NCBI GenBank assembly: GCA_041492755.1
Contig: JBGPXN010000002.1
Location: 14,883-78,882, forward strand
DNA length: 64,000 bases
Reading direction: 5' to 3'
DNA from: Candidatus Methylomirabilia bacterium
Lineage (GTDB): Bacteria; Methylomirabilota; Methylomirabilia; Rokubacteriales; CSP1-6
Position numbers and translations under genes: made by a program. The notes under the pieces were generated by a model. That model worked only from the letters and a program-made list of their open reading frames with translations, was not told the origin of the DNA and ran no database searches. The number at the start of each line of letters is the position of its first letter. The stretch's first letter is position 1. Shown piece after piece: positions 1,948-63,112 of this stretch.

Positions 1948-2028
1948 GCAATCGGCTCGTGCTGAGCTCAGGCCATCGGATCGAGTGCAGCCCCCCGGAT
2001 GCTTGCGAAAGCGGCTAATCTAGGGCGC

Positions 2029-9938: not shown

Positions 9939-9964
9939 GCGGGTCCGGTATTACCGACACGAAC

Positions 9965-10595: not shown

Positions 10596-10624
10596 TCCCA
10601 CCTTCATGTCGGGAGAGCGAACCC

Positions 10625-11847: not shown

Positions 11848-11995
11848 GTACATGGGGGGCCCCGATAGGGCCCCCCATACCCCCCAAGACGCTCGGCGCG
11901 CCCCGGGGAACCCGTGGCGCGCCTCGAAACCCCTCAGCGCTCGGAGCGCCGCGGCGGAGCCGTGGCGCTCCTCGAATTCCCTCACACCCTCTGAG
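11845..11995. repeat. Intergenic repeat element copy A (three stem-loops)
   Basis: TGAGTACATGGGGGGCCCCGATAGGGCCCCCC...GGCGCGCC-N13-GGCGCGCC...GGAGCGCC-N13-GGCGCTCC...TTCCCTCACACCCTCTGAG. It is near-identical to 26115..26245 apart from a ~20-nt insertion. Confidence 0.85.
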
Positions 11996-12021
11996 CGAAG
12001 TCGGTCTGGCGGCGCCGGCCA

Positions 12022-12037
12022 TATGACCTACGTCATA
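12022..12037. promoter_or_regulatory. Candidate CRP/FNR-family (Dnr/NnrR-like) operator upstream of the molybdoenzyme operon
   Basis: Perfect inverted repeat TATGAC-CTAC-GTCATA. The core TGAC-N4-GTCA resembles the TTGAT/C-N4-G/ATCAA FNR-type box. Its centre lies ~76 nt upstream of ATG 12106. Confidence 0.3.
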
Positions 12038-12105
12038 CCGGCGCTCGCGCGATCGCGGGCAATGTGCGGGTGAGCCTCGGAGTGCGGGAGCAAGGAGGGC
12101 GCCCG

Positions 12106-13794: not shown

Positions 13795-13817
13795 CGGCAC
13801 ACCGGGAGGAGACCACG

Positions 13818-17264: not shown

Positions 17265-17268
17265 CGCG

Positions 17269-17541
17269 ATGCCGTACGCCGATCCGGATCCGACCGATCC
17301 CACCGAGCTGGTGGGCGTGGAGCTGCCGGCGCACGCGGAGGCGACGCGGGACATGGCCTGGGTCTTCGCCGAGGAGTTCGCGCGCATGGGCTTCGATGGG
17401 CGCCGGATCCTCGGGCTCTTCCGCTCGCCGTTCTACGCCGGGGCCCACCAGGCCCTGCGCGCGCTCGGCGAAGCCGAGGTCCTGGCCATCATCGAGGAGT
17501 GCGTCGGCGTCTTCGGCCGCCACGGGGAGACTCGCCTATGA
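17269..17541 (+). CDS. Small conserved-looking hypothetical protein between alpha and beta subunits
   Basis: 90-aa ORF starting 4 nt after the alpha stop. Its stop overlaps the beta start (ATGA at 17538..17541). It has normal acidic/helical composition, unlike off-frame ORFs. Confidence 0.55.
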   Translation: MPYADPDPTDPTELVGVELPAHAEATRDMAWVFAEEFARMGFDGRRILGLFRSPFYAGAHQALRALGEAEVLAIIEECVGVFGRHGETRL

Positions 17542-18803
17542 CCGCCGTCCACAACTGGCAACTCGGTCGTGAGATCGCCTACCCGTACGAGGCCGCGTAT
17601 CCCGAGCGGCAATTCGCGTTCGTCTTCAACATCAACCGCTGCATCGCCTGCCAGAGCTGCACGATGGCTTGCAAGTCCACCTGGACCTTCTCGAAGGGCC
17701 AGGAGCACATGTGGTGGGCCAACGTCGAGACCAAGCCGTACGGCGGCTACCCGATGTTCTGGGACATGAAGATCCTCCAGCTGCTCGACCGCGCGAACCC
17801 GGACGGCGTGAAGTGGACGGGCGCGCCGTCGGCCGACCGCCGGAGCCCCTACGGGACGTTCGAGGGCCGCACGGTCTTCGAGGCGCAGCGGATGCTGACG
17901 CCCGACAGCGCGCGCGTCCTCGGGTATCTCCCGACCGACGAGGAATGGAACTCGCCCAACATCTACGAGGACAACCCGGTCGGTGAGCGCGGCAAGCCCG
18001 GCGAGTTCCACCGGACCGGCGCGGTGCTGCCCGAGCACAAGACGTGGTTCTTCTACCTCGCGAGGATCTGCAACCATTGCCAGTACCCGGCGTGCCTGGC
18101 CGCCTGCCCGCGCAAGGCGATCTACAAGCGGCCCGAGGACGGCATCGTCCTCATCGACCAGGCGGAGTGCCGCGGCTACCGGAAATGCGTCGAGGCCTGC
18201 CCGTACAAGAAGTCCATGTACCGGGGCAACACGCGCGTGTCCGAGAAGTGCATCGCGTGCTACCCGCGCGTCGAGGGCAAGGACCCCGAGGCGGGCGGCG
18301 TCCCGCTCGAGACGCGCTGCATGGCGGCCTGCATCGGCCACATCCGCATGCAGGGTCTCGTGAAGCTCGACCGTGACGGCACGTGGGCGGAGGACCGCCA
18401 GCATCCGCTCTACTACCTCGTCCACGTCGCGAAGGTGGCGCTGCCGCTCTATCCGCAGTTCGGCACCGAGCCCAACGGCTACTACATCCCGCCGCGCTGG
18501 GTGCCGCGCCCCTATCTCCGCCAGATGTTCGGCCCGGGCGTGGACCAGGCGATCGAGCGCTACGAGAACCCCGACCGCGAGCTCACGGCCGTGCTCCAGC
18601 TCTTCCGCCGGTCGAACAAGATGATCTTTGGCTACAAGGTCGTGGACGGGCCCAAGATTTACGAGGGAACGCTCCGCGGGCGCACGGTCACGCTCTACAA
18701 CGACACGGTGATCGCGTACGGGAAAGACGGCAAGGAGCTCTTCCGGACGACGGTCGAGGAGCCGATCTATGTCCGCGCCGCCAAGCACGCCAACTCGATC
18801 TGA
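17538..18803 (+). CDS. Four-cluster Fe-S beta subunit (NarH/NxrB-like)
   Basis: MTAVHNWQLGREIAYPYE...FAFVFNINRCIACQSCTMACKSTW, CNHCQYPACLAACP, CRGYRKCVEACP, CIACYPR. It is 421 aa long, close to the periplasmic NxrB size class as I recall it. Confidence 0.85.
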   Translation: MTAVHNWQLGREIAYPYEAAYPERQFAFVFNINRCIACQSCTMACKSTWTFSKGQEHMWWANVETKPYGGYPMFWDMKILQLLDRANPDGVKWTGAPSADRRSPYGTFEGRTVFEAQRMLTPDSARVLGYLPTDEEWNSPNIYEDNPVGERGKPGEFHRTGAVLPEHKTWFFYLARICNHCQYPACLAACPRKAIYKRPEDGIVLIDQAECRGYRKCVEACPYKKSMYRGNTRVSEKCIACYPRVEGKDPEAGGVPLETRCMAACIGHIRMQGLVKLDRDGTWAEDRQHPLYYLVHVAKVALPLYPQFGTEPNGYYIPPRWVPRPYLRQMFGPGVDQAIERYENPDRELTAVLQLFRRSNKMIFGYKVVDGPKIYEGTLRGRTVTLYNDTVIAYGKDGKELFRTTVEEPIYVRAAKHANSI

Positions 18804-41322: not shown

Positions 41323-41571
41323 TCCGCGCTCGCCGGTGTGACCGTGCTCGATCTCGCCACCTTCCTCGCGGCCCCGTGTGCGCCATGCTGCTCGGTGAAT
41401 TCGGCGCCGACGTCATCAAAGTGGAGCACACGTCCGGGCGCGAGAGAACATCGTGTGGATGGCGGTGGAAGACCTCGGCGTGCTGCTGATGCCGGGCCGT
41501 CCCAGCCGGGGCAGGACAACGAGGAAATCTACGGAGGGCGGCTCGGCCTGGCTTTCGCGGCGAGGGCCGTT
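41323..41571 (+). pseudogene. Remnant of a family III CoA-transferase (CaiB/BaiF-like) with frameshift and large internal deletion
   Basis: LAGVTVLDLATFLAAP (one frame) continues as VCAMLLGEFGADVIKVEH in the -1 frame (a missing G at ~41369..41372). About 60 nt later only the C-terminal-like GQDNEEIYGGRLGL remains, so ~300 codons are absent. Confidence 0.55.
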
Positions 41572-43534
41572 ACTTCTCGGAGCCCGGACGCTCCTGGTCG
41601 GTGGCGACCACCATCTCGGACAGGCGCTTGAGCACTTCCATGGTGAGCTCGGGACGGTTGCGGATCAGCCACTCCAGCCGCTGATACTTCAGCACCAGCA
41701 GCTCGGTGTCGTTGGTGGCGATGGCGGACGCGGACCGGGCGGCCTTGCGGAAGAGCGCCATCTCGCCGAAGAGGTCGCCTTCGCCATACTTGGCCAGCGT
41801 GCGCTCCGAGCCGTTGAAGCGCTTCTTGATCTCGACCACCCCGGAGTGCACCACGTACGCCTCGCCCTTGGCGTCGTCACCTTCGTTGAAGATCACGGTC
41901 GACGGCCCGTACTTCCGGCGCTCGACGTCGCCGAGCGTGAGGTTCTTGTAGATCTCGAGCCCGATCGACGGCAGGTGGCCCTTGGACTCGACCGGCAGGC
42001 GCGCGTTCGTCCATCCGCCCAGTCCGCCCTTGAGGATGCGCGCGCCCGTGTAGCCGGTGGCGTGCAGCTTGTGGACGACCTTCTCGCTCGTCTGCTCCTC
42101 CGGGCTCGTACAGTACGCCACGATCATCTGCTTCTTGTCGGCGTCGAGATTGAAGCGGCCGGCCAGCGCCTCGTCGGGATCGATGCGGATGGAGCCGGGC
42201 AGCTTGAGCGGACTGGTGTCGTAATCGCTCTGGGTGCGGACGTCGACGAGCAGCGGGTTCGCGCCCTTCTCGATCGCCGCGATGACCTGCCTGGGGAGGA
42301 TGCGGAATCGGTTCTTCCACCAGCGCCGGCCCCACATGCCGCCGTAGACGCCCCCGCTCAGCAGCGTCACGCCGAGGGTTGCCAACGCCCACGGAAACGG
42401 CCGTGGCGGCGGGTTCTTGACCTTCTCCTCCGCGTCGTCGAGGGCGCGCTTGACGTCGGTCAGGTTCGGCAGCAGCTTGTTGGCTTCGCCGATCTTGGCC
42501 GCCGCCGTCGCGTAGCGCTCCCCGAACAGCGCGGTAACGCCCGCGGCCCACGGTTCGTTGAACCGGCTGTCGCCGGGCTTCTGGACGGGGGTGTCGGCGA
42601 GGAATTTCAGGACGTCCTTGGCCGGGATCAGGAAATTGAAGCCCTGCACGATGGCGCCGCCGCTCTGCGACAGCGACACGAACGTCAGGACGGCGGCCAC
42701 CGCGGCCTCGTTGTCGATGGCGGGCCCACCGCTGTTGCCGTGGGCGGCCGGCGCGTCGGACTGGATCACGTCCTGCCCGATGGCGTCCGTCTGGAACCCG
42801 GACACGGCCCCGTTCGTGGCGGACGACTGGATCGCCACGCTCTGGTTCAGCAGCTCGTTGGAGAGGACGACGCCCGGAAAGCCGAGGATGTGGAGGGGAT
42901 CGCCGATCTTCGCGGCCTTGGTCGAGATCGGCAGTGCGGGATAGACACCGTCCTTCACCTTGAGCAGGGCGAGGTCGCGTCCCGAGTCCTTCAGGGGCTG
43001 GTTCGCCGTGTCGAGGTAGAGCGGCGGGCTGAACTTCTTGACCTCGGCCTCGAGCCGGGTCCCGTTCGAGAGCAGCACGCTGATCTGCGGTATGGGGGTG
43101 AACTTGGCGTTCGCCAGCGCGCGGTCACCGGCGTCCCGCCGGATCTGATCTTCGAGGTCGGGGCGCTGCCCGCGCATCAGGCCGCGGGCGCGCAGCACCG
43201 GCTCCACGCACGCCTGATCCACCGCGCTCTTCTTGAGCTCGTGGGTGACCCAGGGTGGTAGGCGATGCGCCGGGTCGACGACATGGGCGTTGGTGACCAG
43301 GTAGCCGCGGCCGTCGACGAACCAGCCGGTGCCGGTTTCCACGAACGGCGCCGGCTTCACCGTCGTCGGCCCCTGGCCGCAATTCATGGTGATCTCGGCG
43401 TCGACGCGGGTGGTGATGAGCGCGACCGCCGGCTTCGCCCTGAGGATAGCTTCCTGGACGCTGAGAGCGAGCGCGGGGAGCGGCGCGGCGATCCAGGCTA
43501 GCGCCAGCGCACTCTCGAGCAACAGCCGCTTCAT
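41570..43534 (-). CDS. Multidomain protein: secreted trypsin-like Ser protease - TM - rhodanese - cyclic-nucleotide-binding domain
   Basis: ATG 43534 gives the signal MKRLLLESALALAWIAAPLPALA. The S1 triad context is present (TNAHVV, DLALLKV, GNSGGPA), followed by a TM segment (WALATLGVTLLSGGVYGGMW). The rhodanese domain has LVDVRTQSDYD...IVAYCTSPEE and the cNMP domain has FNEGDDAKGEAYVVHSGVVEI...GEGDLFGEMALF...RSASAIA. Confidence 0.8.
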   Translation of the reverse strand: MKRLLLESALALAWIAAPLPALALSVQEAILRAKPAVALITTRVDAEITMNCGQGPTTVKPAPFVETGTGWFVDGRGYLVTNAHVVDPAHRLPPWVTHELKKSAVDQACVEPVLRARGLMRGQRPDLEDQIRRDAGDRALANAKFTPIPQISVLLSNGTRLEAEVKKFSPPLYLDTANQPLKDSGRDLALLKVKDGVYPALPISTKAAKIGDPLHILGFPGVVLSNELLNQSVAIQSSATNGAVSGFQTDAIGQDVIQSDAPAAHGNSGGPAIDNEAAVAAVLTFVSLSQSGGAIVQGFNFLIPAKDVLKFLADTPVQKPGDSRFNEPWAAGVTALFGERYATAAAKIGEANKLLPNLTDVKRALDDAEEKVKNPPPRPFPWALATLGVTLLSGGVYGGMWGRRWWKNRFRILPRQVIAAIEKGANPLLVDVRTQSDYDTSPLKLPGSIRIDPDEALAGRFNLDADKKQMIVAYCTSPEEQTSEKVVHKLHATGYTGARILKGGLGGWTNARLPVESKGHLPSIGLEIYKNLTLGDVERRKYGPSTVIFNEGDDAKGEAYVVHSGVVEIKKRFNGSERTLAKYGEGDLFGEMALFRKAARSASAIATNDTELLVLKYQRLEWLIRNRPELTMEVLKRLSEMVVATDQERPGSEK

Positions 43535-43707
43535 GGCCTCGAACCCTACCACGGAGAGCCGGTGTGTTGCTAGGTTCGTCGGGCGCGGCGCGTCCGGCCG
43601 GTCCCGGGGTGACGGCATCCTGACGTCCAGCGTCAGCCGATGACACGCTGACGCGACGTCGAGCGGCGGGATCCGAGCCGCCCCGCCCGAAAGTCGGCGG
43701 TTCCTCC

Positions 43708-51599: not shown

Positions 51600-54500
51600 A
51601 TGAACAGGAATGGTGCTCTCGTGACCCGACCGAATCTCATGAACGGCGTCCGGGGCTTGCTGCTCGGCCTCGTCGCCCTCGGGACCAGCTACCTGGCCGC
51701 CGGCTCGGCCGATGCCGCGGTCCTCAAGCGCGTCCACACCGGTGTCCGGAACGTCCCGAGCGCAACGGCCGTCACGGTGGTCTTGGATCTACCCGACGCG
51801 TCCAAAGCCTTCGTCGTGTGCTATCCCCGCAGCAGCACCACGAGCTCGCACCAGCGCGTGACCTGCGTCCTCGGCGACAACCTGCTCACGATCGACGGCG
51901 GGACGAACGTCGGCGCCAACGTCACCGTCTCCTTCTACGTCGCCGAGTTCGATTCCGGAGTGTTCGTCCGGCGCGGCACCTCGAGCTTCGCCGCCGCGGG
52001 GACGACGCCGACCGCGGCCCCATCGTTCAGCGCGGTGGACTGCACGTCCAGCTTCATCGTCTGGGGTGGCGAGCAGACGAATGCCTCCGCGAGCAACAAC
52101 AACGACGAAGAGTTCACCTTCCGCGCGATCCTGGGCACGGTCGCTTCGCCCTGCACCAGCGGGACGACCAGCACGCTGTCGATCGATCGACTCGACGGCG
52201 CGACGGCGGCCACCGTGGCCTGGCAGATCGTCACCATGGACAGCGCGGTGGTGCAGCGGAACGTGGCGAGTCTCGCCAATAACGCGACCACCACCACCGC
52301 TGCCATCACCTCGGTCGACACGACCAAGTCGTTCGCGCAGATCACCCGGACCGGCGGCACCGCGATCGCCGGCGTCGAGAACCTGTACCTGACGCGGGTG
52401 ACCTTCTCGGCCGCCAACCAGCTCACGTTCACGCGGGGCGCGCAGACGGGCGCCGCCAACACGGGGGTGAGCATCGCGTGGGAGGTCGTGTCGTTCTTCG
52501 ACGGTACGACCGTGACGTCCGGGACGACCACCGGCACGGGCACCCACACCCAGATGAGCACGGCGCTGTCAGGGGTCAGCACGGGACGGGCCGTGCCGTT
52601 GTACGCGCAGTCGACCGCCGTCGCGGGCAACAACATCTGGTCGGCCGCGGCCTGGTCGGTGCAGGTGGTGAGCAACCCGAGTTTACAGATCCTGTTCACG
52701 CGCGGCGCCAGCAGCAACAGCGTCGTGTCGGCGAGCTGGTACGTCGTGTCCTTCAACCGTTGCACCAACGATCCGCTCTGCCAGGTCGGCGCCAATGCCG
52801 GCTCGGGTCAGGTGCGGCTGGCCACCACGACTTACACTGACCCCGGGTGCCCCGTGTTCGGCTGCGGGTACCTGGTGCTGCGCCGGACGGCCTCGATCAC
52901 CGACGCGCCGGTGAATGGCACGCAGTACGCGGTAGGGGGCACGATCGGGAGCTCGACGGTCGTCTACAACGCGCACCAGACGAGCAACACCAACGCGAAC
53001 GCCGCCAATGCGACCAGCTTGACGGTCGGGTCGACGACCGGCTTCCCGTCGTCCTGCAACAGCAACTGCCGCGCATACGTCTTCGACGCGACCACGCTGG
53101 CCGTCGACGAGTTCACGTATACCGGCACCACGGCGACGACCTTCACGGGCATCCCGAACTCGGGCGCGCTGGCCATGCTGGCCCACCCCGTCGGCTCCAT
53201 CGTCCGCGCGTATCCGGGCAGCCAATCGAGCGGGAACATCACGATGCCGCAGACGACGACGTCCGCCGCGCTCGGCTTGACCAGCACGACGGGGGCGATC
53301 ACCGTGGCGTCCACCACGATCACCGTCGCGTCCACGACGAACTTCGCCTCGTCGGGGACCGCCTTCATCAACAAGACCGACGCGTTCACGTACACGGGGA
53401 CGACGGCGACGTCGTTCACCGGCGTGTCGGGGATCGACGCGTCCTACGCCGCCGGCGCTGGCATCAACGCCTTCGGCACGACGATCACCGTGGCCTCGAC
53501 GGCCAACTTCCCGTCGGCGGGTACCGCCTACGTCAGCGCCAGCGATTCGTTCACCTACACGGGGACCACCGCCACGTCGTTCACCGGAGTTCAGGGCGTG
53601 AGCGCCTCCTACACGTCCGGGGTGGCCATCACCGCGGAGGGCTTCCGGGAGACCGGCCTCAGCAACGGGACGACCTACTTCTACAAGGTGTTCCCGAAGA
53701 CCGGGAGCAGCACGTACGTGACGACGCTGACGAACGCGCAGAGCCAGGTGACCGCGGTCCCCGACGCGGGCCAGACGACGTGGAGCTTCGCGACGACGTC
53801 GGGCTCGACCATGAACTTCCCGGTCGCGGGGAACACCGGCATCTTCGTGTCCGCGAACAACACGACGATCACGACGCTCAACCCGGCCGACGGGACGCAG
53901 ATGGCGCAAGCGAACACGGAGGGGGCGGTCCAGAGCTACGTGACGTGGGGCGTCGACAGCGGCGGCGCGGGCGAAAGCGTCACCGGCGCGGACTCGGTCG
54001 GCATGATCTACCAGCTCGACGCCAGCACCGGGGACCCGCGGTGGTCGACCGCCTTCCCGAATCTCCAGGCCGGAGACTACATCCAGGCCGGCATCTCCGC
54101 CCAGGTCCTCGACTACTCGGACGCGACGTTCCAGGGCCAGTTCTCGACGGACGTGCTCTTCGTCGGCACCACGGGCGACGGCACGAACACGACCAACCAT
54201 GCGGTGGCGGCGTTTCGCGCTGACACCGGCGCGCTGCTGTGGGAGTTCCGGCCGAACCCCACGGGAGTCGGCGCGCCCATGGGCGAGGTGATCGGCCAGC
54301 CGTGGGTCGACTATGAGCGCAACCGGCTCTACGTCACCACCCGCAATGGCGTGTTCGGCGGTCAGAACGGCCTGTGGGTGCTGCGCACGGTCCAGGAAGG
54401 CGCGAACGCCGCGGGCACGCTCGTCACCTCGTTCGGCACCGTCGGTGATTCCCAGATCCCCCCCACGGCCAGCTACAACGGCCAGGTCCTCTACCTCGCC

Positions 54501-55013
54501 GACGTGCCGGATCAGAGCGCAGGCTTCACGGCGGGCACGCTGCACGCGTTCAACCTGAATGGCGGAACGCCGGCTCAGAAATGGGCGGGCGGTATGGCCA
54601 TCCAGAGCCCGCTCGGTTACCCGAAGGGCCTGGTCTGGGAGGACTTCGGCGTGAACCCCGGGGGCGAGCGACGGCTGTACGTCGTGACCGACGACAATGC
54701 CCGGGACGGGATCCGCTGCATCCAGGACGATGGCGCGAGCGGCTCGCCGTGCTGGCATCGGCCGCATCCGGCGTCGGGCGGGCGATTCCGGAGCATGGTC
54801 ATCGGCGACGATGCTCTCTACGTGGGGAGCTCCGATGGCCGTCTCTACCAGATCGACTACGTGACGGGGAGCATCGTGACGTGCTACGCGGTCTCCGGCA
54901 GTCCCGACCTTGGCGACGCCAGCACCTCGGATGGTCAGCAGATCTTCCTCGGGAGCGCGGGCGGGCGCGTGTACCGTATCGAGCTTCCGCTCCCGGTGGT
55001 GAGCTGCCCATGA
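51600..55013 (+). CDS. Giant secreted protein: Thr/Ser-rich N-region, triple FTYTGTTATSFTG repeat, C-terminal PQQ/BamB-like beta-propeller
   Basis: Signal (GLLLGLVALGTSYLAAGSADA). There are three ~45-aa repeats at ~53010..53640. The C-terminal propeller blades include RLYVTTRNG, QVLYLADV, RLYVVTDD, ALYVGSSDGRLYQID and IFLGSAGGRVYRI. The stop overlaps the next start (ATGA 55010..55013). Confidence 0.75.
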   Translation: MNRNGALVTRPNLMNGVRGLLLGLVALGTSYLAAGSADAAVLKRVHTGVRNVPSATAVTVVLDLPDASKAFVVCYPRSSTTSSHQRVTCVLGDNLLTIDGGTNVGANVTVSFYVAEFDSGVFVRRGTSSFAAAGTTPTAAPSFSAVDCTSSFIVWGGEQTNASASNNNDEEFTFRAILGTVASPCTSGTTSTLSIDRLDGATAATVAWQIVTMDSAVVQRNVASLANNATTTTAAITSVDTTKSFAQITRTGGTAIAGVENLYLTRVTFSAANQLTFTRGAQTGAANTGVSIAWEVVSFFDGTTVTSGTTTGTGTHTQMSTALSGVSTGRAVPLYAQSTAVAGNNIWSAAAWSVQVVSNPSLQILFTRGASSNSVVSASWYVVSFNRCTNDPLCQVGANAGSGQVRLATTTYTDPGCPVFGCGYLVLRRTASITDAPVNGTQYAVGGTIGSSTVVYNAHQTSNTNANAANATSLTVGSTTGFPSSCNSNCRAYVFDATTLAVDEFTYTGTTATTFTGIPNSGALAMLAHPVGSIVRAYPGSQSSGNITMPQTTTSAALGLTSTTGAITVASTTITVASTTNFASSGTAFINKTDAFTYTGTTATSFTGVSGIDASYAAGAGINAFGTTITVASTANFPSAGTAYVSASDSFTYTGTTATSFTGVQGVSASYTSGVAITAEGFRETGLSNGTTYFYKVFPKTGSSTYVTTLTNAQSQVTAVPDAGQTTWSFATTSGSTMNFPVAGNTGIFVSANNTTITTLNPADGTQMAQANTEGAVQSYVTWGVDSGGAGESVTGADSVGMIYQLDASTGDPRWSTAFPNLQAGDYIQAGISAQVLDYSDATFQGQFSTDVLFVGTTGDGTNTTNHAVAAFRADTGALLWEFRPNPTGVGAPMGEVIGQPWVDYERNRLYVTTRNGVFGGQNGLWVLRTVQEGANAAGTLVTSFGTVGDSQIPPTASYNGQVLYLADVPDQSAGFTAGTLHAFNLNGGTPAQKWAGGMAIQSPLGYPKGLVWEDFGVNPGGERRLYVVTDDNARDGIRCIQDDGASGSPCWHRPHPASGGRFRSMVIGDDALYVGSSDGRLYQIDYVTGSIVTCYAVSGSPDLGDASTSDGQQIFLGSAGGRVYRIELPLPVVSCP

Positions 55014-55480
55014 CCAGACGCGCGCTGACCGGAGCACTGGCCGCCCTCGCCCTCCTCGTGGTCTCGGCGACGCCCCCCGCGCAGGCGAAGAACGGATGCC
55101 GAGGCGACCACGAGCGGATCGAGCACCATCGTGGGGACCCCCGCGCGCGGATCACGTTCATCGGGATGACGCGCGACGGCCACCCGCACCACGGCGACCA
55201 CTTCCATGGACGCTCGGTGGCGGTGGTGCGGATCATCGTCGACTGGCGCCGACTCGGCACGCCGGGCACGCAACGACTCGACGTCTTCACGCCCAACGGC
55301 GACCTGTACCGGAGCTTCACCGCCACCGCGACCGACGACGCCGTGGTGGAGACACGGCTGCCCGTCGCCGGGACCTGGATCACCCAGCACTCCATGTTCG
55401 GCGCGTGGTGCGCCGAGGTGTCGTTGGTGGGCGAAGAGGGGCCGGTCGCGCGGGACGGCTTCGTCCTGGCTCCACGCTGA
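55010..55480 (+). CDS. Small secreted His-rich hypothetical protein
   Basis: Signal MTRRALTGALAALALLVVSATPPAQA, then HERIEHHRGD...HPHHGDHFHG and a beta-rich domain. It is translationally coupled on both sides. Confidence 0.55.
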   Translation: MTRRALTGALAALALLVVSATPPAQAKNGCRGDHERIEHHRGDPRARITFIGMTRDGHPHHGDHFHGRSVAVVRIIVDWRRLGTPGTQRLDVFTPNGDLYRSFTATATDDAVVETRLPVAGTWITQHSMFGAWCAEVSLVGEEGPVARDGFVLAPR

Positions 55481-55929
55481 GTCTCCCCCCCGCGCTCGCC
55501 GCCGACCTCGCCGGTCACCTGCTGCGCCGCGGCGACACGGTGACGATCCGCGCGCGCGGCGCGAGCATGCTGCCGTTCCTGCGCGACGGTGATCTCGTGC
55601 GAATCGTTCCCCGACCGGTCGGCGCCGTCCTGACGGGTGACGTTGTGTGCTACGCTGCCGCGAATGCGTTGTTCCTCCACCGCGTCGTCGATCGACCGGG
55701 TCACTTCGTGGTCAAGGGCGATGCCGTGACGTTCGCGGACGTGGTCCCGGCCGCCGAGGTACTCGGGCTGGTGACGGCGGTGGAACGCCACGGCCGCGTC
55801 CGGCGGATGGACACGCGGGCCGCGCGCCTGCGAAACCGCGTGATCGCCTCGTTGTCTCCGCTGCTCTCCGCCGTCGTTCCTGCCGGTGTGGCCATCGTGC
55901 GGCGCCTCCTCCGGCGAGGCGGTGCATGA
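55477..55929 (+). CDS. S24/S26 (SipW-like signal peptidase) family peptidase
   Basis: GASMLPFLRDGDLVRI (catalytic Ser-Met), GDVVCY, LFLHRVV, VKGDA. The start is uncertain: there is no ATG/GTG upstream of the conserved N-region, so it is either CTG 55477 overlapping the previous TGA (CTGA) or GTG 55540. Confidence 0.6.
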   Translation: MSLPPALAADLAGHLLRRGDTVTIRARGASMLPFLRDGDLVRIVPRPVGAVLTGDVVCYAAANALFLHRVVDRPGHFVVKGDAVTFADVVPAAEVLGLVTAVERHGRVRRMDTRAARLRNRVIASLSPLLSAVVPAGVAIVRRLLRRGGA

Positions 55930-56723
55930 GCGGTTCGGCGCGCGAAGTGCGCATCGAGATCGGTGGTCTTCGCGCGGCTCTCGAAACCGAGGGCGGTGAG
56001 CTCACGGCGCTGGCCGAGCGACGGTACGCGGGGTTTCTCTCGCGGGCGCGTCCCGACTGGCGCTTCCGCGTCGGCCGGCGGGAGCACGGTCTGGTGCCGC
56101 TCGCCGACGTGGTCGTCCGTCAGCCCCACGGAACTGGGCGGATCGAGCTCGAACGGCACGACTTTCTCGCGACACTGGACGTCCGCCGTCGCGTCGGCGA
56201 CGTCGCTCTGGGCGAGATGGACGAGATCGCGCTGGACGCCTTCTTGCGGGTCGCCTACTCCATCGCGTTGCTCGATGCCGGTGCGCTGTTGCTGCACGCC
56301 TCGAGCGTGGCGCGGGATGGCCGCGGCTACGTCTTCCCGGGGCGCTCCGGCAGCGGCAAGACGACGGTAACGCGACTGTCGCCCGGCGCCACCCTGCTGA
56401 GCGACGAGCTGTCGATCGTCGGGCGCGAGGGTCGCTGTTACGGCACACCGTTCTGGGGTGAGCTCGCCAGGGCTGGGGAGAACCGCTCGGTCCCGGCCGC
56501 CGGGCTCTATCTTCTGCGCCAGGCGGATCACCATGCCGCCACGCCGCTTCGCGCGCCGCAGGCGCTGGCCGCGCTATTGCCGAACGTCGTCTTCTTCGCC
56601 CGCGACCCCGGGCTGGTCGCGCGAGTCTTCGACGTCGCGGCCGACGTGGTCGAGCGCGTGCCATGCTTCGACCTCGCGTTCCGGCGGGATCCGGGGTTCT
56701 GGGACGTCATCCAGCGTGACTGA
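55926..56723 (+). CDS. HPr-kinase-related protein (HprK-related kinase A/B type)
   Basis: ATGA overlap with the upstream stop. LLLHASSVARDGRGYVFPGRSGSGKTTV is the HprK-like P-loop block, and FWGEL follows downstream. Confidence 0.7.
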   Translation: MSGSAREVRIEIGGLRAALETEGGELTALAERRYAGFLSRARPDWRFRVGRREHGLVPLADVVVRQPHGTGRIELERHDFLATLDVRRRVGDVALGEMDEIALDAFLRVAYSIALLDAGALLLHASSVARDGRGYVFPGRSGSGKTTVTRLSPGATLLSDELSIVGREGRCYGTPFWGELARAGENRSVPAAGLYLLRQADHHAATPLRAPQALAALLPNVVFFARDPGLVARVFDVAADVVERVPCFDLAFRRDPGFWDVIQRD

Positions 56724-57006
56724 GCACTACCCGACGCAGAATCCCCGGGCGGCGTGGCGAGTCTACGAGGGCGAAGCCGTCATCGTGTCACCCGAGGACA
56801 GCCGGTTCCACACGCTGAATGCCGTCGGCACCTTGATCTGGGAAGCCGCCGACGGGCGCACACCGCTCGGGGCGATCGTGACTCGGATCTGCGCGGAGTA
56901 CGCCGTCGAACCGGACGCCGCCGTAAGCGACGCGAGCGCGTTCGTGTCCGCGCTCTGTGCCCGTGGGCTGATGGAGCTCCGCGAGACCCCGGCCGAGACG
57001 GGGTGA
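56716..57006 (+). CDS. PqqD-family protein (RiPP recognition element)
   Basis: GTG 56716 overlaps the kinase end by 8 nt. AVIVSPEDSRFHTLNAVGTLIWEAADGRTPLGAIVTRICAEYAVEPDAAVSDASAFVSALCARGLM is the canonical PqqD pattern. Confidence 0.8.
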   Translation: MTEHYPTQNPRAAWRVYEGEAVIVSPEDSRFHTLNAVGTLIWEAADGRTPLGAIVTRICAEYAVEPDAAVSDASAFVSALCARGLMELRETPAETG

Positions 57007-57016
57007 GGAGGTCGCG

Positions 57017-57175
57017 ATGGATGCCAATGGCGAACGTCGTGGCGAGGGCGATGGCCGGAAGCCCTACGAGCCACCCCAGATCGTGAGCGAGGACATCTTC
57101 GAGACGACCGCTCTGGCGTGCGGCAAGAAGCCGATGCAGGGCGGCAACTGCGCGGCCCGCGCGAAGGCCTCCTGA
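57017..57175 (+). CDS. Candidate RiPP precursor peptide (52 aa), not in the supplied ORF track
   Basis: GAGGAGGtcgcgATG. The translation is MDANGERRGEGDGRKPYEPPQIVSEDIFETTALACGKKPMQGGNCAARAKAS. It has a YxxPxI leader motif, two Cys and a C-terminal Ser, and its stop lies 1 nt before the radical SAM start. Confidence 0.6.
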   Translation: MDANGERRGEGDGRKPYEPPQIVSEDIFETTALACGKKPMQGGNCAARAKAS

Positions 57176-57176
57176 C

Positions 57177-58286
57177 GTGTCCGCTCTCGCCGAGCGCGTG
57201 GCCGACCTCAGCATGGCGCGACGGATCCCGCTGTCCGTCCACGTCGATCTCACCATGCGCTGCAACGAGACGTGCGTGCACTGCTACCGCGTCATCGAGC
57301 GCCGCGACGAGCTCACCACGGCCGAAGTCACCGCGCTGCTCCACGAGCTGGCCCGGGCGGGCACGCTCTATCTCACGTTCAGCGGGGGTGAGGTTTTTCT
57401 GCGGCGCGACCTGTTCGAGCTCATCGAGGTCGCCAAGCGGCTGCGCTTCGACCTTCGGCTCAAGACCAACGCGCTGCTCGTCACGCGGGAGCGGGCGGAG
57501 CGCCTCCGCGCGCTCGGCGTCCGGCAGGTGGACATCAGCATCTACAGCGCCGATCCGGCCGTGCACGATCAGGTCACCCGCGTCCCCGGCTCGCTCGCCC
57601 GGTCGCTGCAGGGCGTCCAGCATCTGACGGCGGCCGGGCTCCGAGTTCGCCTCAACTGTCCGTTGATGGCCCATACGGCGGCCACCTACCGGGACGTGCG
57701 CGCCCTGGCGGAACGGCTCGGCGTCACGTGCGGCTTCGATCCCATGATCACCGCCCGCAACGACGGCGATCGCCGGACGGTCGGCCTGCGCATCCGGCCC
57801 GCTGAGCTGCGTCGGGTGCTTCAGGACCCGGTGCTGAATCCGCCGGCACCCTCCGGGACGAAGCCGCCCGCCGCCGACCCAGCCCCGCCGGCCGGCGCGC
57901 GCGCCGACCTCGACGACATCGCGTGCGGCGCCGGCCACAACGCCTGTTACGTGAGTGCCTACGGAGACGTCATGCCCTGCGTGGCCATGCCGATCGCCTG
58001 CGGCAGCATTCGGGACGCGTCGTTCATGGAGATCTGGTCACGCTCGCCGAAGATGCAGGAGGTCCGAGCCGTCCGGATCCGTCACCTGCATACCTGCGCC
58101 ACCTGCGAGGTCGCCTCGTTCTGTTCACGCTGCCCCGGCCAGGCCCTGGTCGAGGACGGCGACCTCTACGGACCCTCGACGGCTGCCTGTGAACACGCCG
58201 CCGTCGCCGCGGGACTTGCTGGCATTGCCGCGGTCCCGGCCTCGTGGCGAGGGCGAGACGGTCTGCCCTCCCGCATCGCGCCGTAA
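57177..58286 (+). CDS. Radical SAM / SPASM-domain peptide-modifying enzyme
   Basis: GTG start. It has the CNETCVHC (CxxxCxxC) cluster motif, the FSGGEVFL SAM-binding block and the C-terminal SPASM cysteines (CGAGHNACYVSAYGDVMPC, CATCEVASFCSRCPG). Confidence 0.85.
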   Translation: MSALAERVADLSMARRIPLSVHVDLTMRCNETCVHCYRVIERRDELTTAEVTALLHELARAGTLYLTFSGGEVFLRRDLFELIEVAKRLRFDLRLKTNALLVTRERAERLRALGVRQVDISIYSADPAVHDQVTRVPGSLARSLQGVQHLTAAGLRVRLNCPLMAHTAATYRDVRALAERLGVTCGFDPMITARNDGDRRTVGLRIRPAELRRVLQDPVLNPPAPSGTKPPAADPAPPAGARADLDDIACGAGHNACYVSAYGDVMPCVAMPIACGSIRDASFMEIWSRSPKMQEVRAVRIRHLHTCATCEVASFCSRCPGQALVEDGDLYGPSTAACEHAAVAAGLAGIAAVPASWRGRDGLPSRIAP

Positions 58287-58459
58287 GCTCGTACAAAGCA
58301 AGCTGAAGTAGCTTCTTATCACCCCTAGTCCGGGTCTCGGGGTTTCTCCCGCCCAAAATACGGGCGGCGCCGGATCGACGCCACTTCAGAACTTTCCTAT
58401 CCTGTTCACACCCGCCGAAAAACTTTTCACATGGAAGTGCACATGCGCCCTTCTTCGAC

Positions 58460-61400
58460 ATGAAGCGAGCCTGGTTCCTGGCTCTCCTGCTGGCCTTGAC
58501 CAGCCCGGTGGCTCGCGCCGAAGAGGCCCAGGCGGACGATTGCGCCCGCCTGAGTGGGGTCGTGGTCGATTCTGGTCTGACCTCGGAGTGCCGGATCGCC
58601 ACCCAGGTCAACGCCAGCGGCGCCTATAACATCGCCACGGCGCTCCGCATCATGTCCACGGGGCAAATCGTGGTTCCCCCGGTGGCCACCGGGAACTCGC
58701 TGACACTGAACGTCGCCGGCGCTCTCACCTTCGAAGTCCCAACGCTGGCGGGCGCGGCGTCGATCGTGGGCGACACCGACGTATTTGGCCCGAACCCCGG
58801 CGGCATCGGCGCCAGCCTGACGATCACCGCTACGGGCGATGTCGTCCTGCGCGGCGACGGCTCCAAGGGCGCCATCGTGTCCGCCAACTCGGATCCTGCC
58901 GGCTGCACCGGGAACGGCAAGGCCGGAACCATCGTCATCGGCTCGACGCTTGGTCAGGTCACGGTGGAGAACGGCGGGAGCATCGAGGCCTCCGGGCAGT
59001 GCCCGGCAGGTGAAATCTCCATCGTCACCGACGAGGGCGACATCCGGATCGACGGAGTGGTGGAGGCCGCGAGCGGGACCTCGGGGAGCGGCGGCGTTAC
59101 CCGACCGCGCGGGGGCCCGATCACCATCTCGGCGGCCTGCAAGCTCACCATCGACAAGAACGGTCGTGTCAGCTCCAAGGGACTCAGTCCCGGTGCCGAC
59201 CTCGTCCACCTCGAGAGCGGCTGCGACACGGAAATCCTCGGCCGCGTCGAGTCCGTCGCGGGGGTCGTCCCGGACGGGATGCCGAACCGGTGTACCGCGC
59301 CGTTCCGGCCGGACAAGCCGACCAACGCCACCGCGTGCATCGAGGTCTGGGCGGGCGGAAAGCTCGTCGTCACGACGATCACGCCGAACAACGGATACGT
59401 CGTGGCGGAGACCGGCGCCGGAGTGAGCGCCGCGCTTCCCGGCATCTGCTGTACGTGGATCGACCTCTTCGCCAACGGCGACGTCACGATCCAGGGCCGG
59501 CCAACGAGTGTGCGCGGCCAGCCCTACGCGATCGCCGCCCGTCAGACCGCGGCGAACGCCAAGGGCGGGTCCATCGACGTGAAGTCCGTGAAGGGCAAGG
59601 TCACCACGAGCGGCCGAGCCCTGGTTGCCGACGCCATCACCGCGCCCGGTGGCACCGGCGGCAGCATCACGATCGAAGCGGGCGGACCGACGACGTATCC
59701 GCCGAACCTCGTGCACCCGGCCGACCCGGCATCGAACGTCGACCTGGGCGACACGTCGGTGCGTGCGGTGGGGGGCGCTCAGATCACGCCGCCCGGCCGC
59801 GGCAGCATCGCGGTCCGGTCCTTCAACGGTCAGATCACGGGGGGTGGCCTGACCAATGGTGCGCCCGACATCAACAAGGGGCATCTCGATGCCTCCGGCG
59901 GCGGTACGGCCGTGGTCATCGACGTCCGCCTCTGCGAAGGCGATCTCTACATCGGCCCCATTCTCCCGGGGGCGACGCGGAGCTCGCTGGCCTGCGGCGG
60001 CAATCCGACGCCACCCTCGTTCGTGGACGTCCCGGTGTTCGTGCCGCGACCGACCGTCACGATCTCGAGTCCGGCCGGCTGCCAGAACTTCGTGTGCGTC
60101 TTCAACGCGGCACCTCGCCCTGCCACGGCGCTCGCGACCGGCACCCAGGGCGAGCCGCTCTCGCCGGTGAACGTCACGTACGCCTTCAACGGCAACCCCG
60201 TGACGGTACCACTCGCCGTCGGCGACTACGTCGTGACCGCGACGTTCCCGGGCAACGCGAATTACCGGTCGGCTTCGGCCACCGCGATCGTCACGGTCAT
60301 CGGCGGTAACCTGCCGGTCCCGACGCTCAGCGTGACGGGGGGGACGTTCACCTATGACCGCGCGCCGCATTCGGCGACGGTCACCCTGTTGGGCAATGGC
60401 TTGCCGCTCGCCGGAGCCATCGTCACCTACAACGGCTCGCCGGCCCCGCCGGTGAACGCCGGGATGTACGCGGTCGTCGCCTCGTACGCCGGCAGCTCGC
60501 TCTTCCTGCCCGCCGGACCGGTCCAGACGACGATCACGATCAACCAGGCGACGCCCGTGGTGAGCGTGTCGTCGTTCTCCGCCCTCTACGACGGCAACCC
60601 GCATCCGGCCAGCGGCTTGGTCACGGGCGTCGGCGGCGAGAGCCTCGGCGCCCCGACGTTCACCTACAGCGGATCGCCGAGCGCGCCGCGCTTCGCGATC
60701 GGCAGCTACACCGTCGTCGGAACCTACGCCGGCAGCACCAACTACTCGGGCGCGACCGGCACGGGCACGATTACGCTGACGCCGGCGACGCCGCTGGTGA
60801 CCGTGAGCCACCTGACGTTCCTGTACGACGGCCAGCCCCATCCCGCCACGGGCAGCGTCATCGGTGTGAACGGCGAAGTGCTGAGCGGCCTGGCGTTCAC
60901 GTACGACAACTCCCCGGCGGCGCCCACCACGCGGGGCTTCTACCCGGTCACCGGCGCGTTCACGGGCGGCGGCAACTACGGGCCCGCGACCGGCGTCGGG
61001 TCGGTGACCATCGTTGGCCTGCCGGTGACCGTCACGGTGACGGGCGCCAGCGTCACGTACGACGGGCAGCCGCATCCGTCCACGGCCACGGTGACGGACG
61101 CCAGCAACGTCGTCATCGCCATCGTTCCCCTCGTCTACAACGACCTGGACGCCGGCGGCTCCGTGCCGATCCCCGTCGACGCCGGGACGTACGACGTCGT
61201 GGCCTCCTATCCGGGCGACGACGTCAACGCGCCCGCGGAGGGCTCGGCCCAGACCGTGATCGCGCCGTTCACCACGCAGATGACCCTCACCGGCGGCTCG
61301 TTCACCTACGATGGCCAGGCGCATCCCACCGTGGTGACCGTGACCGGCGTCGGCGGCCAGCCGCTGAGCCCGGTGGACGTGACGTACAACGGCGTGCCGG

Positions 61401-63112
61401 ATCCGCCCGTCGCCGTGGGCACCTACACGGTCGTCGCCACGTTCGCGGCCACGCGCAACTACGCGGGCGTCACGCGCTCGGCAACGATCACGATCCGGGC
61501 GCTGCCGGCCACGGTCAGCGTCACCGGCGGTTACTTCGCCTTCGACGGTCAGCCGCACCCGGCGACGGGCACCGTGACCGGCGTGAGCGGCGAGCCCCTC
61601 GCGCCACTGACGTTCACCTACAACGGCCTCCCCGACGCGCCGGTGAACGCCGGCACGTACCAGGTGGTAGGCACGTTCCCCGGCAACGACCTGTACGGCC
61701 CGGCCACGGCGACGGCCGTGATCCGGATCGTGTCCGGCGACGAGGCCGGCGAGACCTGTGTGCTCGTGGACTTCCGGGAGATCACCTACTTCCGGAACCA
61801 GACGGTGATCACGTCGTCGGATGCCGGCATCCGCCTGCGCAGCGGGATCGGCGGGCCGTTCAACCCGGCGCTGTGGCCGTACGACGCGAACGGCGCTGCG
61901 GGGAAGACGCGCTCGCGGGGAACGCTGTTCCGCATCTACGGCTTCAAGGCGGACCAGCTCGGCGCGCGCATTCCGGACGCCGACAACCCGCTGAGCTATC
62001 CGGTGGTCGCGGACCCGAACATTCCCGGCGCGTACTACATCGATCTCGGCGGCAAGCCGGCGCGGGTGACGGTGTGCGTCCCGCAGTTGCAGACGAATCT
62101 CCTCGACGGGTCGCTCGATGACGCCGGCGTGCTCCCCGGCAGCCCCCGGCTGACCGACGCGCAGAAGAACGTGCCGGGCATCATGCTCACCCACAACGCG
62201 GTCAAGCTCTCGATCCCGTCGCGCGTGCGCACCGAGCTGCGCGCTCTCGGCATGCCGCTGGTGGACCAGCGCGGGCGCGACGTGGCGTACGGATACATCC
62301 ACTACGTCGGTTTCCAGCTCTGGGGCCACGGAAACGAGAGCCTGCGCGAGTTCGTCGACGTCCGGGTGGAGTTCGTCAACGACGACGCCACCGACCGGCG
62401 GCTCCACTACGAGTACGGCTTCCATACCGTGAAGAACGACGACTTCGAGAGCCCGGCCGGCTGCAACTACATGGACCGCAACCCCGGTAACGACGGCCTG
62501 CGATTCAACGACGTGTGGGAAGGCACGCGCGTCGGGGACCCGGACTATGGCCCGGCCTGCGGCGCGCGGGAGCCGTCGCAGAACCAGAAGGTGCGCGCGA
62601 ACTACGCGGTGCCGTTCAATGGCGTGCAGCTCCTGACCGCGGTGAACACCCACGACGACACCGTGCGCATCTTCTTCGGCGAGATCCGGCCGGTGCCGCC
62701 GGCGAATCGTGCCCCGGCCCTGACCTCGCCGGGTAACCGGACGGTGACAGTGGGCTCGGCGCTCACGTTCACGCTCCAGGCGACGGATGCCGACGGCGAC
62801 GCCCTGACCTACGGCGCCACCGGCCTGCCGGCGGGCGGCACGCTGAACGCCGCGACCGGCGCGTTCGCGTGGACGCCGACATCCACCCAGGTGGGCGCCT
62901 TCAGCATGACCTTCACCGTGACCGATGCGGGCGGGTTGCGCGACTCCAGGACGGTCGTCCTGACGGCGCAGCGCAAGCGCACGGGGGACAAGGACTCCGA
63001 GCCCGACGACGACGAGCGCTCGCACAGGCAAAAGACGGGCGAGCGGTCTCGAGACGACGATGACGATCGCCCGGCGTCCCGAAAAGCAGGTGAATTATCG
63101 CGCGACGACTGA
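58460..63112 (+). CDS. Giant secreted adhesin-like protein: beta-helix N-region, seven MBG-like repeats, He_PIG/cadherin-like Ig domain, acidic tail (1550 aa)
   Basis: Signal MKRAWFLALLLALTSPVARA. Seven ~73-aa units of the form FTYDGQPHPATG.VTGV.GE.L....FTYNG...PV.AGTY.VV.TF.G..NY at ~60090..61730. He_PIG-like block: LTSPGNRTVTVGSALTFTLQATDADGDALTYGATGLPAGGTLNAATGAFAWTP. Asp/Arg-rich C-terminus. Confidence 0.8.
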   Translation: MKRAWFLALLLALTSPVARAEEAQADDCARLSGVVVDSGLTSECRIATQVNASGAYNIATALRIMSTGQIVVPPVATGNSLTLNVAGALTFEVPTLAGAASIVGDTDVFGPNPGGIGASLTITATGDVVLRGDGSKGAIVSANSDPAGCTGNGKAGTIVIGSTLGQVTVENGGSIEASGQCPAGEISIVTDEGDIRIDGVVEAASGTSGSGGVTRPRGGPITISAACKLTIDKNGRVSSKGLSPGADLVHLESGCDTEILGRVESVAGVVPDGMPNRCTAPFRPDKPTNATACIEVWAGGKLVVTTITPNNGYVVAETGAGVSAALPGICCTWIDLFANGDVTIQGRPTSVRGQPYAIAARQTAANAKGGSIDVKSVKGKVTTSGRALVADAITAPGGTGGSITIEAGGPTTYPPNLVHPADPASNVDLGDTSVRAVGGAQITPPGRGSIAVRSFNGQITGGGLTNGAPDINKGHLDASGGGTAVVIDVRLCEGDLYIGPILPGATRSSLACGGNPTPPSFVDVPVFVPRPTVTISSPAGCQNFVCVFNAAPRPATALATGTQGEPLSPVNVTYAFNGNPVTVPLAVGDYVVTATFPGNANYRSASATAIVTVIGGNLPVPTLSVTGGTFTYDRAPHSATVTLLGNGLPLAGAIVTYNGSPAPPVNAGMYAVVASYAGSSLFLPAGPVQTTITINQATPVVSVSSFSALYDGNPHPASGLVTGVGGESLGAPTFTYSGSPSAPRFAIGSYTVVGTYAGSTNYSGATGTGTITLTPATPLVTVSHLTFLYDGQPHPATGSVIGVNGEVLSGLAFTYDNSPAAPTTRGFYPVTGAFTGGGNYGPATGVGSVTIVGLPVTVTVTGASVTYDGQPHPSTATVTDASNVVIAIVPLVYNDLDAGGSVPIPVDAGTYDVVASYPGDDVNAPAEGSAQTVIAPFTTQMTLTGGSFTYDGQAHPTVVTVTGVGGQPLSPVDVTYNGVPDPPVAVGTYTVVATFAATRNYAGVTRSATITIRALPATVSVTGGYFAFDGQPHPATGTVTGVSGEPLAPLTFTYNGLPDAPVNAGTYQVVGTFPGNDLYGPATATAVIRIVSGDEAGETCVLVDFREITYFRNQTVITSSDAGIRLRSGIGGPFNPALWPYDANGAAGKTRSRGTLFRIYGFKADQLGARIPDADNPLSYPVVADPNIPGAYYIDLGGKPARVTVCVPQLQTNLLDGSLDDAGVLPGSPRLTDAQKNVPGIMLTHNAVKLSIPSRVRTELRALGMPLVDQRGRDVAYGYIHYVGFQLWGHGNESLREFVDVRVEFVNDDATDRRLHYEYGFHTVKNDDFESPAGCNYMDRNPGNDGLRFNDVWEGTRVGDPDYGPACGAREPSQNQKVRANYAVPFNGVQLLTAVNTHDDTVRIFFGEIRPVPPANRAPALTSPGNRTVTVGSALTFTLQATDADGDALTYGATGLPAGGTLNAATGAFAWTPTSTQVGAFSMTFTVTDAGGLRDSRTVVLTAQRKRTGDKDSEPDDDERSHRQKTGERSRDDDDDRPASRKAGELSRDD

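Follow-up and report, generated by a model that had tools for sequence, protein, structure and literature searches.

Here we describe a short open reading frame (ORF) at positions 57017..57175 (+) of a 64,000-nt stretch of DNA from Candidatus Methylomirabilia bacterium (contig JBGPXN010000002.1 of assembly GCA_041492755.1, forward-strand positions 14,883 to 78,882), referred to below as the window. The ORF comprises 52 codons and a stop. Upstream of it lies the gene of a discrete 96-aa protein of the PqqD type (56716..57006, +; Pfam PqqD, 2.9e-17), that is, a recognition element (RRE) of RiPPs, peptides made by ribosomes and modified after translation. Downstream lies the gene of a 369-aa radical SAM/SPASM enzyme with no fused RRE domain (57177..58286, +), and the stop codon of the ORF stands 1 nt before the GTG start of this gene. 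The extent of the ORF, its translation and its location between these two genes are exactly as given in the initial annotation of this stretch. The GAGGAGG Shine-Dalgarno sequence noticed there is also present (57005..57011, +; read directly from the sequence), overlapping the PqqD stop codon (57004..57006), but it is separated from the ATG by 5 nt and not by the reported 6 nt. Nor is the ORF unannotated, as had been thought: JGI metagenomes and NCBI assembly GCA_041485185.1 already contain a called gene for an identical 52-aa "hypothetical protein". A near-identical record with the same 52-aa protein (L001; L numbers designate the loci compared below) differs from the window by 14 of 16,984 overlapping bases. 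Before the PqqD gene come those of an LppS-like leader peptidase resembling signal peptidase I of the archaeal type (SpI-like; 55405..55929, +) and of a 265-aa ScmC-family HprK-like P-loop protein, a putative peptide kinase (55926..56723, +). The ATG of the ScmC gene overlaps the peptidase stop codon (ATGA), the PqqD gene, starting with GTG, shares 8 nt with the end of the ScmC gene, and all of the genes from the peptidase through the radical SAM enzyme overlap or nearly abut. In our view the product of the ORF is likely to be a RiPP precursor (A peptide), and its pathway would be a radical SAM-containing sister of the linear polyphosphorylated peptide (LPP) system.

The ORF is a genuine protein-coding gene under protein-level selection. 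Its GC content by codon position is 0.64/0.55/0.83, next to 0.68/0.55/0.86 in the PqqD gene and 0.72/0.53/0.87 in the radical SAM gene, and its codon-usage log-likelihood is +12.5 bits in the peptide frame and negative in the other five. Among 47 different nucleotide sequences for the conserved block, every invariant residue (12/12) is encoded by at least two codons, and all third-codon positions vary (21/21), as against 10 first and 8 second positions. It might be argued that the ORF is short, that a high-GC genome yields many chance ORFs, and that the region is conserved merely as RNA or DNA, for example as a structured RNA, the counter-case that the initial annotation had raised. However, the synonymous variation at every invariant residue, together with the 649 protein-level relatives found by a profile search, refutes a spurious ORF; frame-specific codon usage speaks against it as well, and an Rfam scan of 55000..59000 returned zero matches at E<=1. 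We give such an explanation practically no credence.

The first, word-seeded search recovered 13 small homologues of 48-63 aa, in which P16, Y17, E18, P19, P20, I22, S24, E25, F28, E29, T30, T31, A32, L33, A34, C35, G36, K37, Q41, C45 and the C-terminal S52 are invariant. A scan of one genome per species gave 61 loci, every one of them in a metagenome-assembled genome (MAG); their hosts belong to Methylomirabilota/Rokubacteria, Acidobacteriota, Armatimonadota, Chloroflexota, Myxococcota, Binatota, Elusimicrobia and Proteobacteria, and the closest relatives (65-75% identity) come from Methylomirabilota/Rokubacteria. When 1.84 billion representatives were searched exhaustively with a profile, 649 proteins came up at E<=1e-3, counted as representatives at 50% identity and nearly all of 45-80 aa. 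A conserved family of small ORFs beside PqqD and radical SAM genes, for which the initial annotation had advised searching, thus exists across phyla. No family match was obtained with Pfam and NCBIfam models, and a PDB sequence search with the peptide returned zero matches even at E<=10.

Across the 215 sequences in register, on which the residue counts below are based, the family profile reads [KR][KR]-P-Y-x-x-P-x-Φ-x-x-E-x-Φ-F-E-T-x-A-L-A-C-G-K, followed by about six variable residues, the last Cys and the C-terminus. The two Cys that had been described as core-like are conserved: the first has a fixed position in 215/215 sequences and stands at core position +5 in 124/128, and 116 of 128 predicted cores contain two. 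In 159/215 the distance between the last Cys and the C-terminus is exactly 7 residues. The core varies in its middle part. Its final residue is Ser in 203/215 sequences and Thr in 9/215, and this hydroxyl-bearing residue (212/215) is the sole universally conserved hydroxyl of the predicted core in both subfamilies of the peptide. The second subfamily (L050, L054, L055, L059, L062, L064-L067) has the form RRPYEPPRIxxREPLEAxAAVC...C..GPIxS, with LEA instead of FET, and is accompanied by SpI-like peptidases with Cys for the nucleophile Ser (GDCMSP in L054). About a dozen peptide genes are orphans, with zero cassette genes within 8 kb (L034, L035, L039-L041, L043, L052, L057, L058, L062, L063); among these, the peptides of L039 and L052 may form a divergent group, since they end in Thr and are devoid of the ACGK motif.

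For the leader, we took as reference the LppA/K/B/S/D/N clusters that encode LPPs in Bacillota (Popov et al., Nat Commun 2026;17:6633; PMC13381572), and the sequences used in our comparison come from Supplementary Data 1 of that work. Judged by homology to LppA leaders (KKPYAPPSVLSHQKVSFET), the predicted leader of the window peptide spans M1-T30 (57017..57106, +) and consists of a variable charged N-terminus and the stretch R14-K15-P16-Y17-E18-P19-P20-Q21-I22...F28-E29-T30. Here, Y17-E-P-P20-Q-I22 (57065..57082, +) corresponds to the YxxPxΦ motif, whose role in RRE binding has been demonstrated for LppA and lasso leaders. Within the family it is the most highly conserved element: Tyr is present in 213/215 sequences and Pro in 215/215, and the last position is taken by I/F/V/L. 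Among solved structures, those closest to the window PqqD protein are TbiB1 (lasso B1; 1.9e-5), PbaB1 (9x90; 6e-4) and LppB (9x8z; 5e-3), all of them lasso/LPP RREs crystallised with YxxP-type leaders; in BLASTP, an LPP RRE was matched at E=1.2e-9 and a Bacillus lasso RRE more weakly, at 6.7e-6. LppB binds YxxP, its D70 hydrogen-bonding the leader Tyr and its N33 fixing the Pro kink (PMC13381572). We judged the docking of leader and RRE by mapping the LppB contact residues onto the window protein in an alignment with 9x8z chain B, which places N33 at N35, D70 at D72, F74 at F76, Y60 at Y62 and I56 at I58, and further V35 at V37, L32 at L34, M78 at L80 and L83 at L85. N35 is kept in 43/46 homologues and D72 in 45/46. 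The YxxPxI segment, taken for an RRE-binding motif in the initial annotation with good support, is near-invariant, and the neighbouring PqqD protein, its predicted binding partner, keeps the recognising Asn and Asp.

The putative leader peptidase is encoded ~0.8 kb upstream of PqqD, separated from it by the ScmC gene alone. It matches TIGR02228 at 2.4e-8, which is below the cutoff of that model, and Peptidase_S24 weakly; in BLASTP against four LPP SpI proteins, E-values range from 3e-13 (33% identity over 140 aa) to 1e-9. The triad is well preserved, with Ser in 37/43 sequences (Cys in 3, from clusters of the second subfamily), His in 43/43 and Asp in 42/43. The start of the gene is uncertain (GTG at 55405, 55408 or 55540). 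Public gene calls begin at or after the catalytic Ser (120-129 aa), and the Bacillota LppS homologue WP_051395626.1 (123 aa in the published table) is truncated likewise. Because the N-terminal helix and the Ser motif GASMLPF are conserved, an upstream start is needed, either GTG 55405/55408, which overlaps the preceding gene, or 55540.

LppS cuts after the Thr of FET, solely when LppB is present, and requires F at -3, E at -2 and T at -1 (PMC13381572). The equivalent residues of the window peptide, F28-E29-T30 (57098..57106, +), are predicted to form -3/-2/-1 of the cleavage site; F is found in 192/215 sequences, E in 207/215 and T in 167/215, the Thr being replaced by Arg or Gln in 14. Cleavage here would leave the predicted core T31-S52 (TALACGKKPMQGGNCAARAKAS; 57107..57172, +), with Cys35 at 57119..57121, Cys45 at 57149..57151 and Ser52 at 57170..57172. 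An alternative site lies between A34 and C35, after A32-L33-A34, where -1 is small in 207/215 sequences and -3 is A, S or V in 215/215. As the classical -3/-1 rule favours the latter site, the point of cleavage is uncertain; by analogy with LppS, we lean towards a cut after FET and regard one after A-L-A as the less probable, though by no means negligible, option. The same A-L-A-C might recall the lipobox of a lipoprotein; this reading was ruled out, since the peptide is devoid of a hydrophobic signal sequence and its Leu occupies -2 instead of -3.

The radical SAM enzyme matches Pfam Radical_SAM and SPASM. Its C29x3C33x2C36 motif is present in 33/33 homologues, and the seven SPASM Cys are kept in 28-33/33. 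The enzyme stays below every NCBIfam family cutoff, the full-length matches including MftC (108.7 bits, cutoff 265), GeoRSP (106.5, cutoff 400) and StsB (96.7, cutoff 625); the closest solved structure by sequence is that of the thioether-forming SkfB (4e-13). The ScmC protein carries PF27840 (ScmC) in precomputed calls and matches the NCBIfam models HprK_rel_A (7.8e-10) and ScmC (1.7e-9), both below cutoff; the Walker A motif GxSGxGK[ST] is present in 35/36 sequences and the [ST]D[ED] acidic pair in most. Further downstream, a nucleotidyltransferase gene of the NTP_transf_5 type (LppN/PsmN-like; 63060..>64000, +) runs past the end of the window; PF14907 is matched by its 411-aa product in L001, and a gene of this type also adjoins the cassette in L011, L017, L038 and L051. 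In lasso clusters, a C-terminal Ser is the target of HprK-like kinases (PadeK, ThcoK, SyanK, PsmK), and a hexose is then added to the phosphate by PsmN, of the NTP_transf_5 type (PMC6993621, PMC10368454). The invariant C-terminal Ser of the window peptide, missed in the initial annotation, is probably important for function. Residues required for proteolysis, for RRE binding and for holding Fe-S clusters and ATP are intact.

In different phyla, the peptide gene shows genetic linkage to five families of enzymes. In a set of 62 loci, of which many are truncated, iterated profile searches found PqqD in 46, the radical SAM enzyme in 40, the SpI-like peptidase in 39, ScmC in 37 and NTP_transf_5 in 25. 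These searches replaced single-linkage clustering of neighbouring ORFs, which had merged families because spurious long ORFs overlap real genes in high-GC DNA. The peptide gene itself occupies at least four different positions: between PqqD and the radical SAM gene, after the latter, before the peptidase, and on the opposite strand. Such linkage, persisting through rearrangement across phyla, argues for a functional unit. The most reduced arrangement occurs in Chthonomonadia (Armatimonadota; L022-L026, L028, L030, L033), where a minimal cluster comprises an SpI-like peptidase, PqqD and a three-Cys peptide (…ALACGKCTSGPFSQFACSTIERNS); in one of these loci, L024, SpoIID and CheB are neighbours. 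Overall, the claim that the ORF is a RiPP precursor is supported by the conservation of the leader motif, the relatives of the RRE, the conserved Cys and the cross-phylum linkage to PqqD and radical SAM genes.

These elements induce us to propose the following pathway, in which we infer the enzyme chemistry, both thioether cross-linking and phosphorylation of the C-terminal Ser. The 52-aa peptide would be translated from a tightly packed operon of SpI-like peptidase, ScmC, PqqD, A and radical SAM genes, and its leader would be bound by the PqqD RRE as an added beta-strand. If the retained LppB contacts are a guide, D72 would hydrogen-bond Tyr17, N35 would fix the kink at Pro20, and I22 would fill a second hydrophobic pocket. 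The complex of RRE and peptide would then be presented to the radical SAM/SPASM enzyme, itself devoid of an RRE, which would modify the core, most probably by forming one or more thioether cross-links from Cys35 and/or Cys45. ScmC would phosphorylate a hydroxyl, most likely that of Ser52, as in paeninodin-type lasso peptides; Ser52 is the likely target since the Ser+3 acceptor of LPPs is Leu here. NTP_transf_5 may then decorate the phosphate. Finally, the Ser/His/Asp SpI-like enzyme, assisted by the RRE, would remove the leader, most likely after F28-E29-T30, to yield a modified peptide of 22 residues.

Several observations weigh against this scenario. The classical -3/-1 rule fits A-L-A better than F-E-T, a profile of LPP precursors matches the window peptide alone weakly (E=0.26), and an exporter was looked for in the window's cluster and not found. 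Loci of Chthonomonadia have no ScmC, radical SAM or NTP_transf_5 gene within 8 kb, yet their peptides keep the C-terminal Ser. Thioether formation, in turn, is a class-level guess that follows from the type of enzyme and the conserved Cys, as the radical SAM enzyme lies below all curated family cutoffs. These considerations touch on a different explanation, namely that the ORF is an LPP-type precursor with its Cys in a disulfide, and that the radical SAM enzyme performs another modification (epimerisation, C-C or C-O cross-linking, C-terminal processing) or serves another substrate. A disulfide between the two Cys is conceivable because Bacillota LPP cores often carry two Cys in clusters without any radical SAM enzyme; moreover, the Chthonomonadia loci keep their Cys pattern with no such gene nearby, and the enzyme of the window matches MftC, PqqE and GeoRSP models about as well as sactisynthases. 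Still, radical SAM gene and peptide gene are adjacent in 40/62 loci across phyla and gene orders, the enzyme without an RRE of its own is encoded beside a discrete RRE, and its closest solved relative by sequence forms thioethers, so that we hold the disulfide alternative to be improbable.

A second alternative is that the ORF gives rise to a peptide-derived cofactor, redox carrier or physiological factor, resembling pyrroloquinoline quinone (PQQ) or mycofactocin and serving the neighbouring secreted beta-propeller and surface proteins, instead of to a variable natural product. Conservation over at least eight phyla extends to the xALACGK motif, the spacing of the Cys and the C-terminal Ser, a pattern typically met in cofactor precursors and seldom in antibiotic RiPPs; a PqqD protein is paired here with a PqqE-like radical SAM/SPASM enzyme, and in two phyla the cassette is flanked, in differing arrangements, by large PQQ_2-type beta-propellers and a secreted His-rich protein. 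On the other hand, these neighbours accompany the cassette in 16/62 loci only, the mid-core is variable, the combination of SpI, HprK-like kinase and NTP_transf_5 is the set of LPP/paeninodin-type peptides, which are not known to be cofactors, and the scores of all PQQ and mycofactocin models remain below cutoff; the chances of this alternative seem slim to us. We hardly believe in a lasso peptide, with whose leaders the initial annotation had compared the motif. The motif itself and the likeness to lasso RREs hold, TbiB1 being the best PDB match of the RRE, but the lasso system is not borne out: an Asn-synthetase-like cyclase and a transglutaminase-type B2 protease are absent among the genes called within ~10 kb, and neither was found among the Pfam-scanned proteins of other loci. 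The leader peptidase is of the SpI type, and the predicted core has no acidic ring-closing residue, since its positions 7-9 are K-K-P. We thus return to the radical SAM-containing sister of the LPP system as the preferred reading.

If this reading is correct, the LPP-type logic of leader, RRE and signal peptidase extends to at least eight phyla beyond Bacillota and is coupled there to a radical SAM/SPASM enzyme, a combination that our literature search met in no searchable paper and that no curated peptide family represents. The peptide would be a concrete, testable precursor candidate for ScmC/PqqD/radical SAM cassettes, and the conservation of its core should render heterologous reconstitution of the family easy. 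A conserved function, rather than an arms-race antibiotic, is suggested by the conserved xALACGK motif, by the terminal Ser and by the constant spacing between the last Cys and the C-terminus. It is tempting to suppose, although we find it rather unlikely, that uncultured phyla of soil and groundwater use, in a role akin to housekeeping, a deeply conserved, non-antibiotic peptide that is cross-linked and bears a C-terminal phospho(glyco)sylation, and that Bacillota LPPs are a radical SAM-less offshoot of this wider, radical SAM-linked group. The peptide might then be a cofactor or a signal; it might also act as partner or anchor of products encoded nearby, either exopolysaccharide machinery or the giant secreted proteins of the beta-propeller and adhesin-like kinds.

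We would also like to comment on the surroundings of the cassette. Upstream of it, the window encodes a secreted beta-propeller protein of 1,137 aa (51600..55013) and a secreted His-rich protein of 156 aa (55010..55480, +). The latter has no Pfam hit and occurs with the cassette in 16/62 loci from two phyla, in differing positions. Along with secreted beta-propellers of >1,000 aa (weak PQQ_2/ACSF4-type hits; CBM96 in L017), it is located upstream of the cassette in Methylomirabilota and downstream in Acidobacteriota; the counterparts in L017 are at 8181..8810 and 8915..15957. A functional link of these proteins to the cassette is possible. Between the radical SAM and NTP_transf_5 genes, the window carries the gene of an adhesin-like surface protein of 1,550 aa (58460..63112; MBG_3/He_PIG/Big_9), preceded by an AT-richer gap of 173 nt; it looks like an insertion into the cassette, because the radical SAM and NTP_transf_5 genes are adjacent in other Methylomirabilota loci. 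Elsewhere, a Terriglobales MAG has an ABC-2 transporter directly upstream of the peptide gene (L051, 6230..7824, +), and a polysaccharide co-polymerase tyrosine kinase (Wzz/GNVR/AAA_31) adjoins the cassette in a Vicinamibacteria MAG (L054, 10816..13038, -), echoing the capsule-locus context reported for Bacillota LPPs. More distant genes of the window encode an aldehyde:ferredoxin oxidoreductase (1999..3849), a Nar/Nxr-like pair made up of a molybdopterin oxidoreductase of unusual length (1,442 aa) and, after it, a 4Fe-4S dicluster subunit (12936..18803), and an unusual 681-aa fusion of a trypsin-like peptidase, a rhodanese and a cyclic-nucleotide-binding domain (41570..43618, -).

Several known systems share parts of this architecture. 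The SynChlorMet (ScmC/ScmD/ScmE/ScmF; TIGR04248-04251) and GeoRSP systems resemble it in that an HprK-like ScmC is followed by a PqqD homologue and a radical SAM/SPASM enzyme, and in the PF27840 match. However, the scores are far from the cutoffs (ScmC 37.5 vs 125, ScmD 40.2 vs 100, ScmE 95.3 vs 400, ScmF 66.3 vs 400), and one radical SAM enzyme is present here instead of two. The SynChlorMet cassette, described in TIGRFAM, is not known to have a precursor assigned to it, and our literature search on SynChlorMet returned zero papers. The PQQ and mycofactocin systems differ both in their maturases, with PqqE (92.7, cutoff 381), PqqD (23.6, cutoff 46) and MftC (108.7, cutoff 265) all below threshold, and in their precursors, as the window peptide contains neither the E-x3-Y motif nor a C-terminal GVY. 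With sactipeptides and ranthipeptides (SkfB, AlbA, CteB, PapB), the cluster has in common a full seven-Cys SPASM domain, a predicted RRE-dependent recognition and conserved core Cys. Unlike in those systems, the RRE is separate and not an N-terminal domain of the radical SAM enzyme, which scores below all curated sactipeptide and ranthipeptide maturase cutoffs; the kinase, NTP transferase and SpI peptidase are foreign to them.

A closer resemblance is seen with lasso peptides of the paeninodin/pseudomycoidin type (PadeK, ThcoK, PsmK; PsmN), which combine a YxxPxL-type leader and a discrete PqqD RRE with an HprK-like kinase and an NTP_transf_5-type transferase as tailoring enzymes, and in which a C-terminal Ser is (poly)phosphorylated and then glycosylated. 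The window's cluster differs from them in having an SpI-like peptidase and a radical SAM/SPASM enzyme, in the absence of a lasso cyclase and a B2 Cys protease among the genes called within ~10 kb, and in the want of an acidic ring-closing residue.

Finally, the LPP clusters themselves differ from ours in several respects. LPPs are stated by the authors to be restricted to Bacillota, their final structure and role being unknown, and their precursors follow the motif YxxPxVLxHQxIxFETxxS, of which the kinase polyphosphorylates Ser+3 (PMC13381572). In the family described here, this acceptor is Leu (198/215), the spacer from YxxPx to FET is two residues shorter, and a conserved xALACGK...C-x6-Ser-COOH core stands in place of highly variable LPP cores. 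The family lives in Methylomirabilota, Acidobacteriota, Armatimonadota and other hosts, every one represented by a MAG; LPPs have an MsbA-like exporter, whereas the window's cluster has none. LPPs are linear products whose clusters have no enzyme for cross-linking backbone or side chains. Here a radical SAM/SPASM enzyme is added in 40/62 loci, and such an enzyme is mentioned neither in the text of the LPP paper nor in its supplements, of which Supplementary Data 2 was covered in part (PMC13381572). The likenesses are nevertheless numerous. Both systems encode, near a discrete RRE, a Ser/His/Asp leader peptidase of the SpI type that matches the same TIGR02228 model. The RRE is of the PqqD type, with an Asn/Asp pair equivalent to N33/D70 of LppB and predicted to bind in the same way. 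An HprK-like P-loop kinase and NTP_transf_5 are present as well, ScmC being likened to LppK by its HprK-like class. The leaders share the form [KR][KR]PYxxPxΦ...ΦFET; when KKPYAPPSVLSHQKVSFET of LPP is compared by eye with RKPYEPPQIVSEDIFET of the window, the two appear to be the same leader with two residues deleted in the latter. In a search with a profile of 11 LPP precursors, the peptide family ranks within the top 27 hits among 7,149 sequences, with weak E-values of 0.008-0.3. Overall, the sequence comparisons indicate that the closest known relative of the cluster is the LPP system and not a lasso system.

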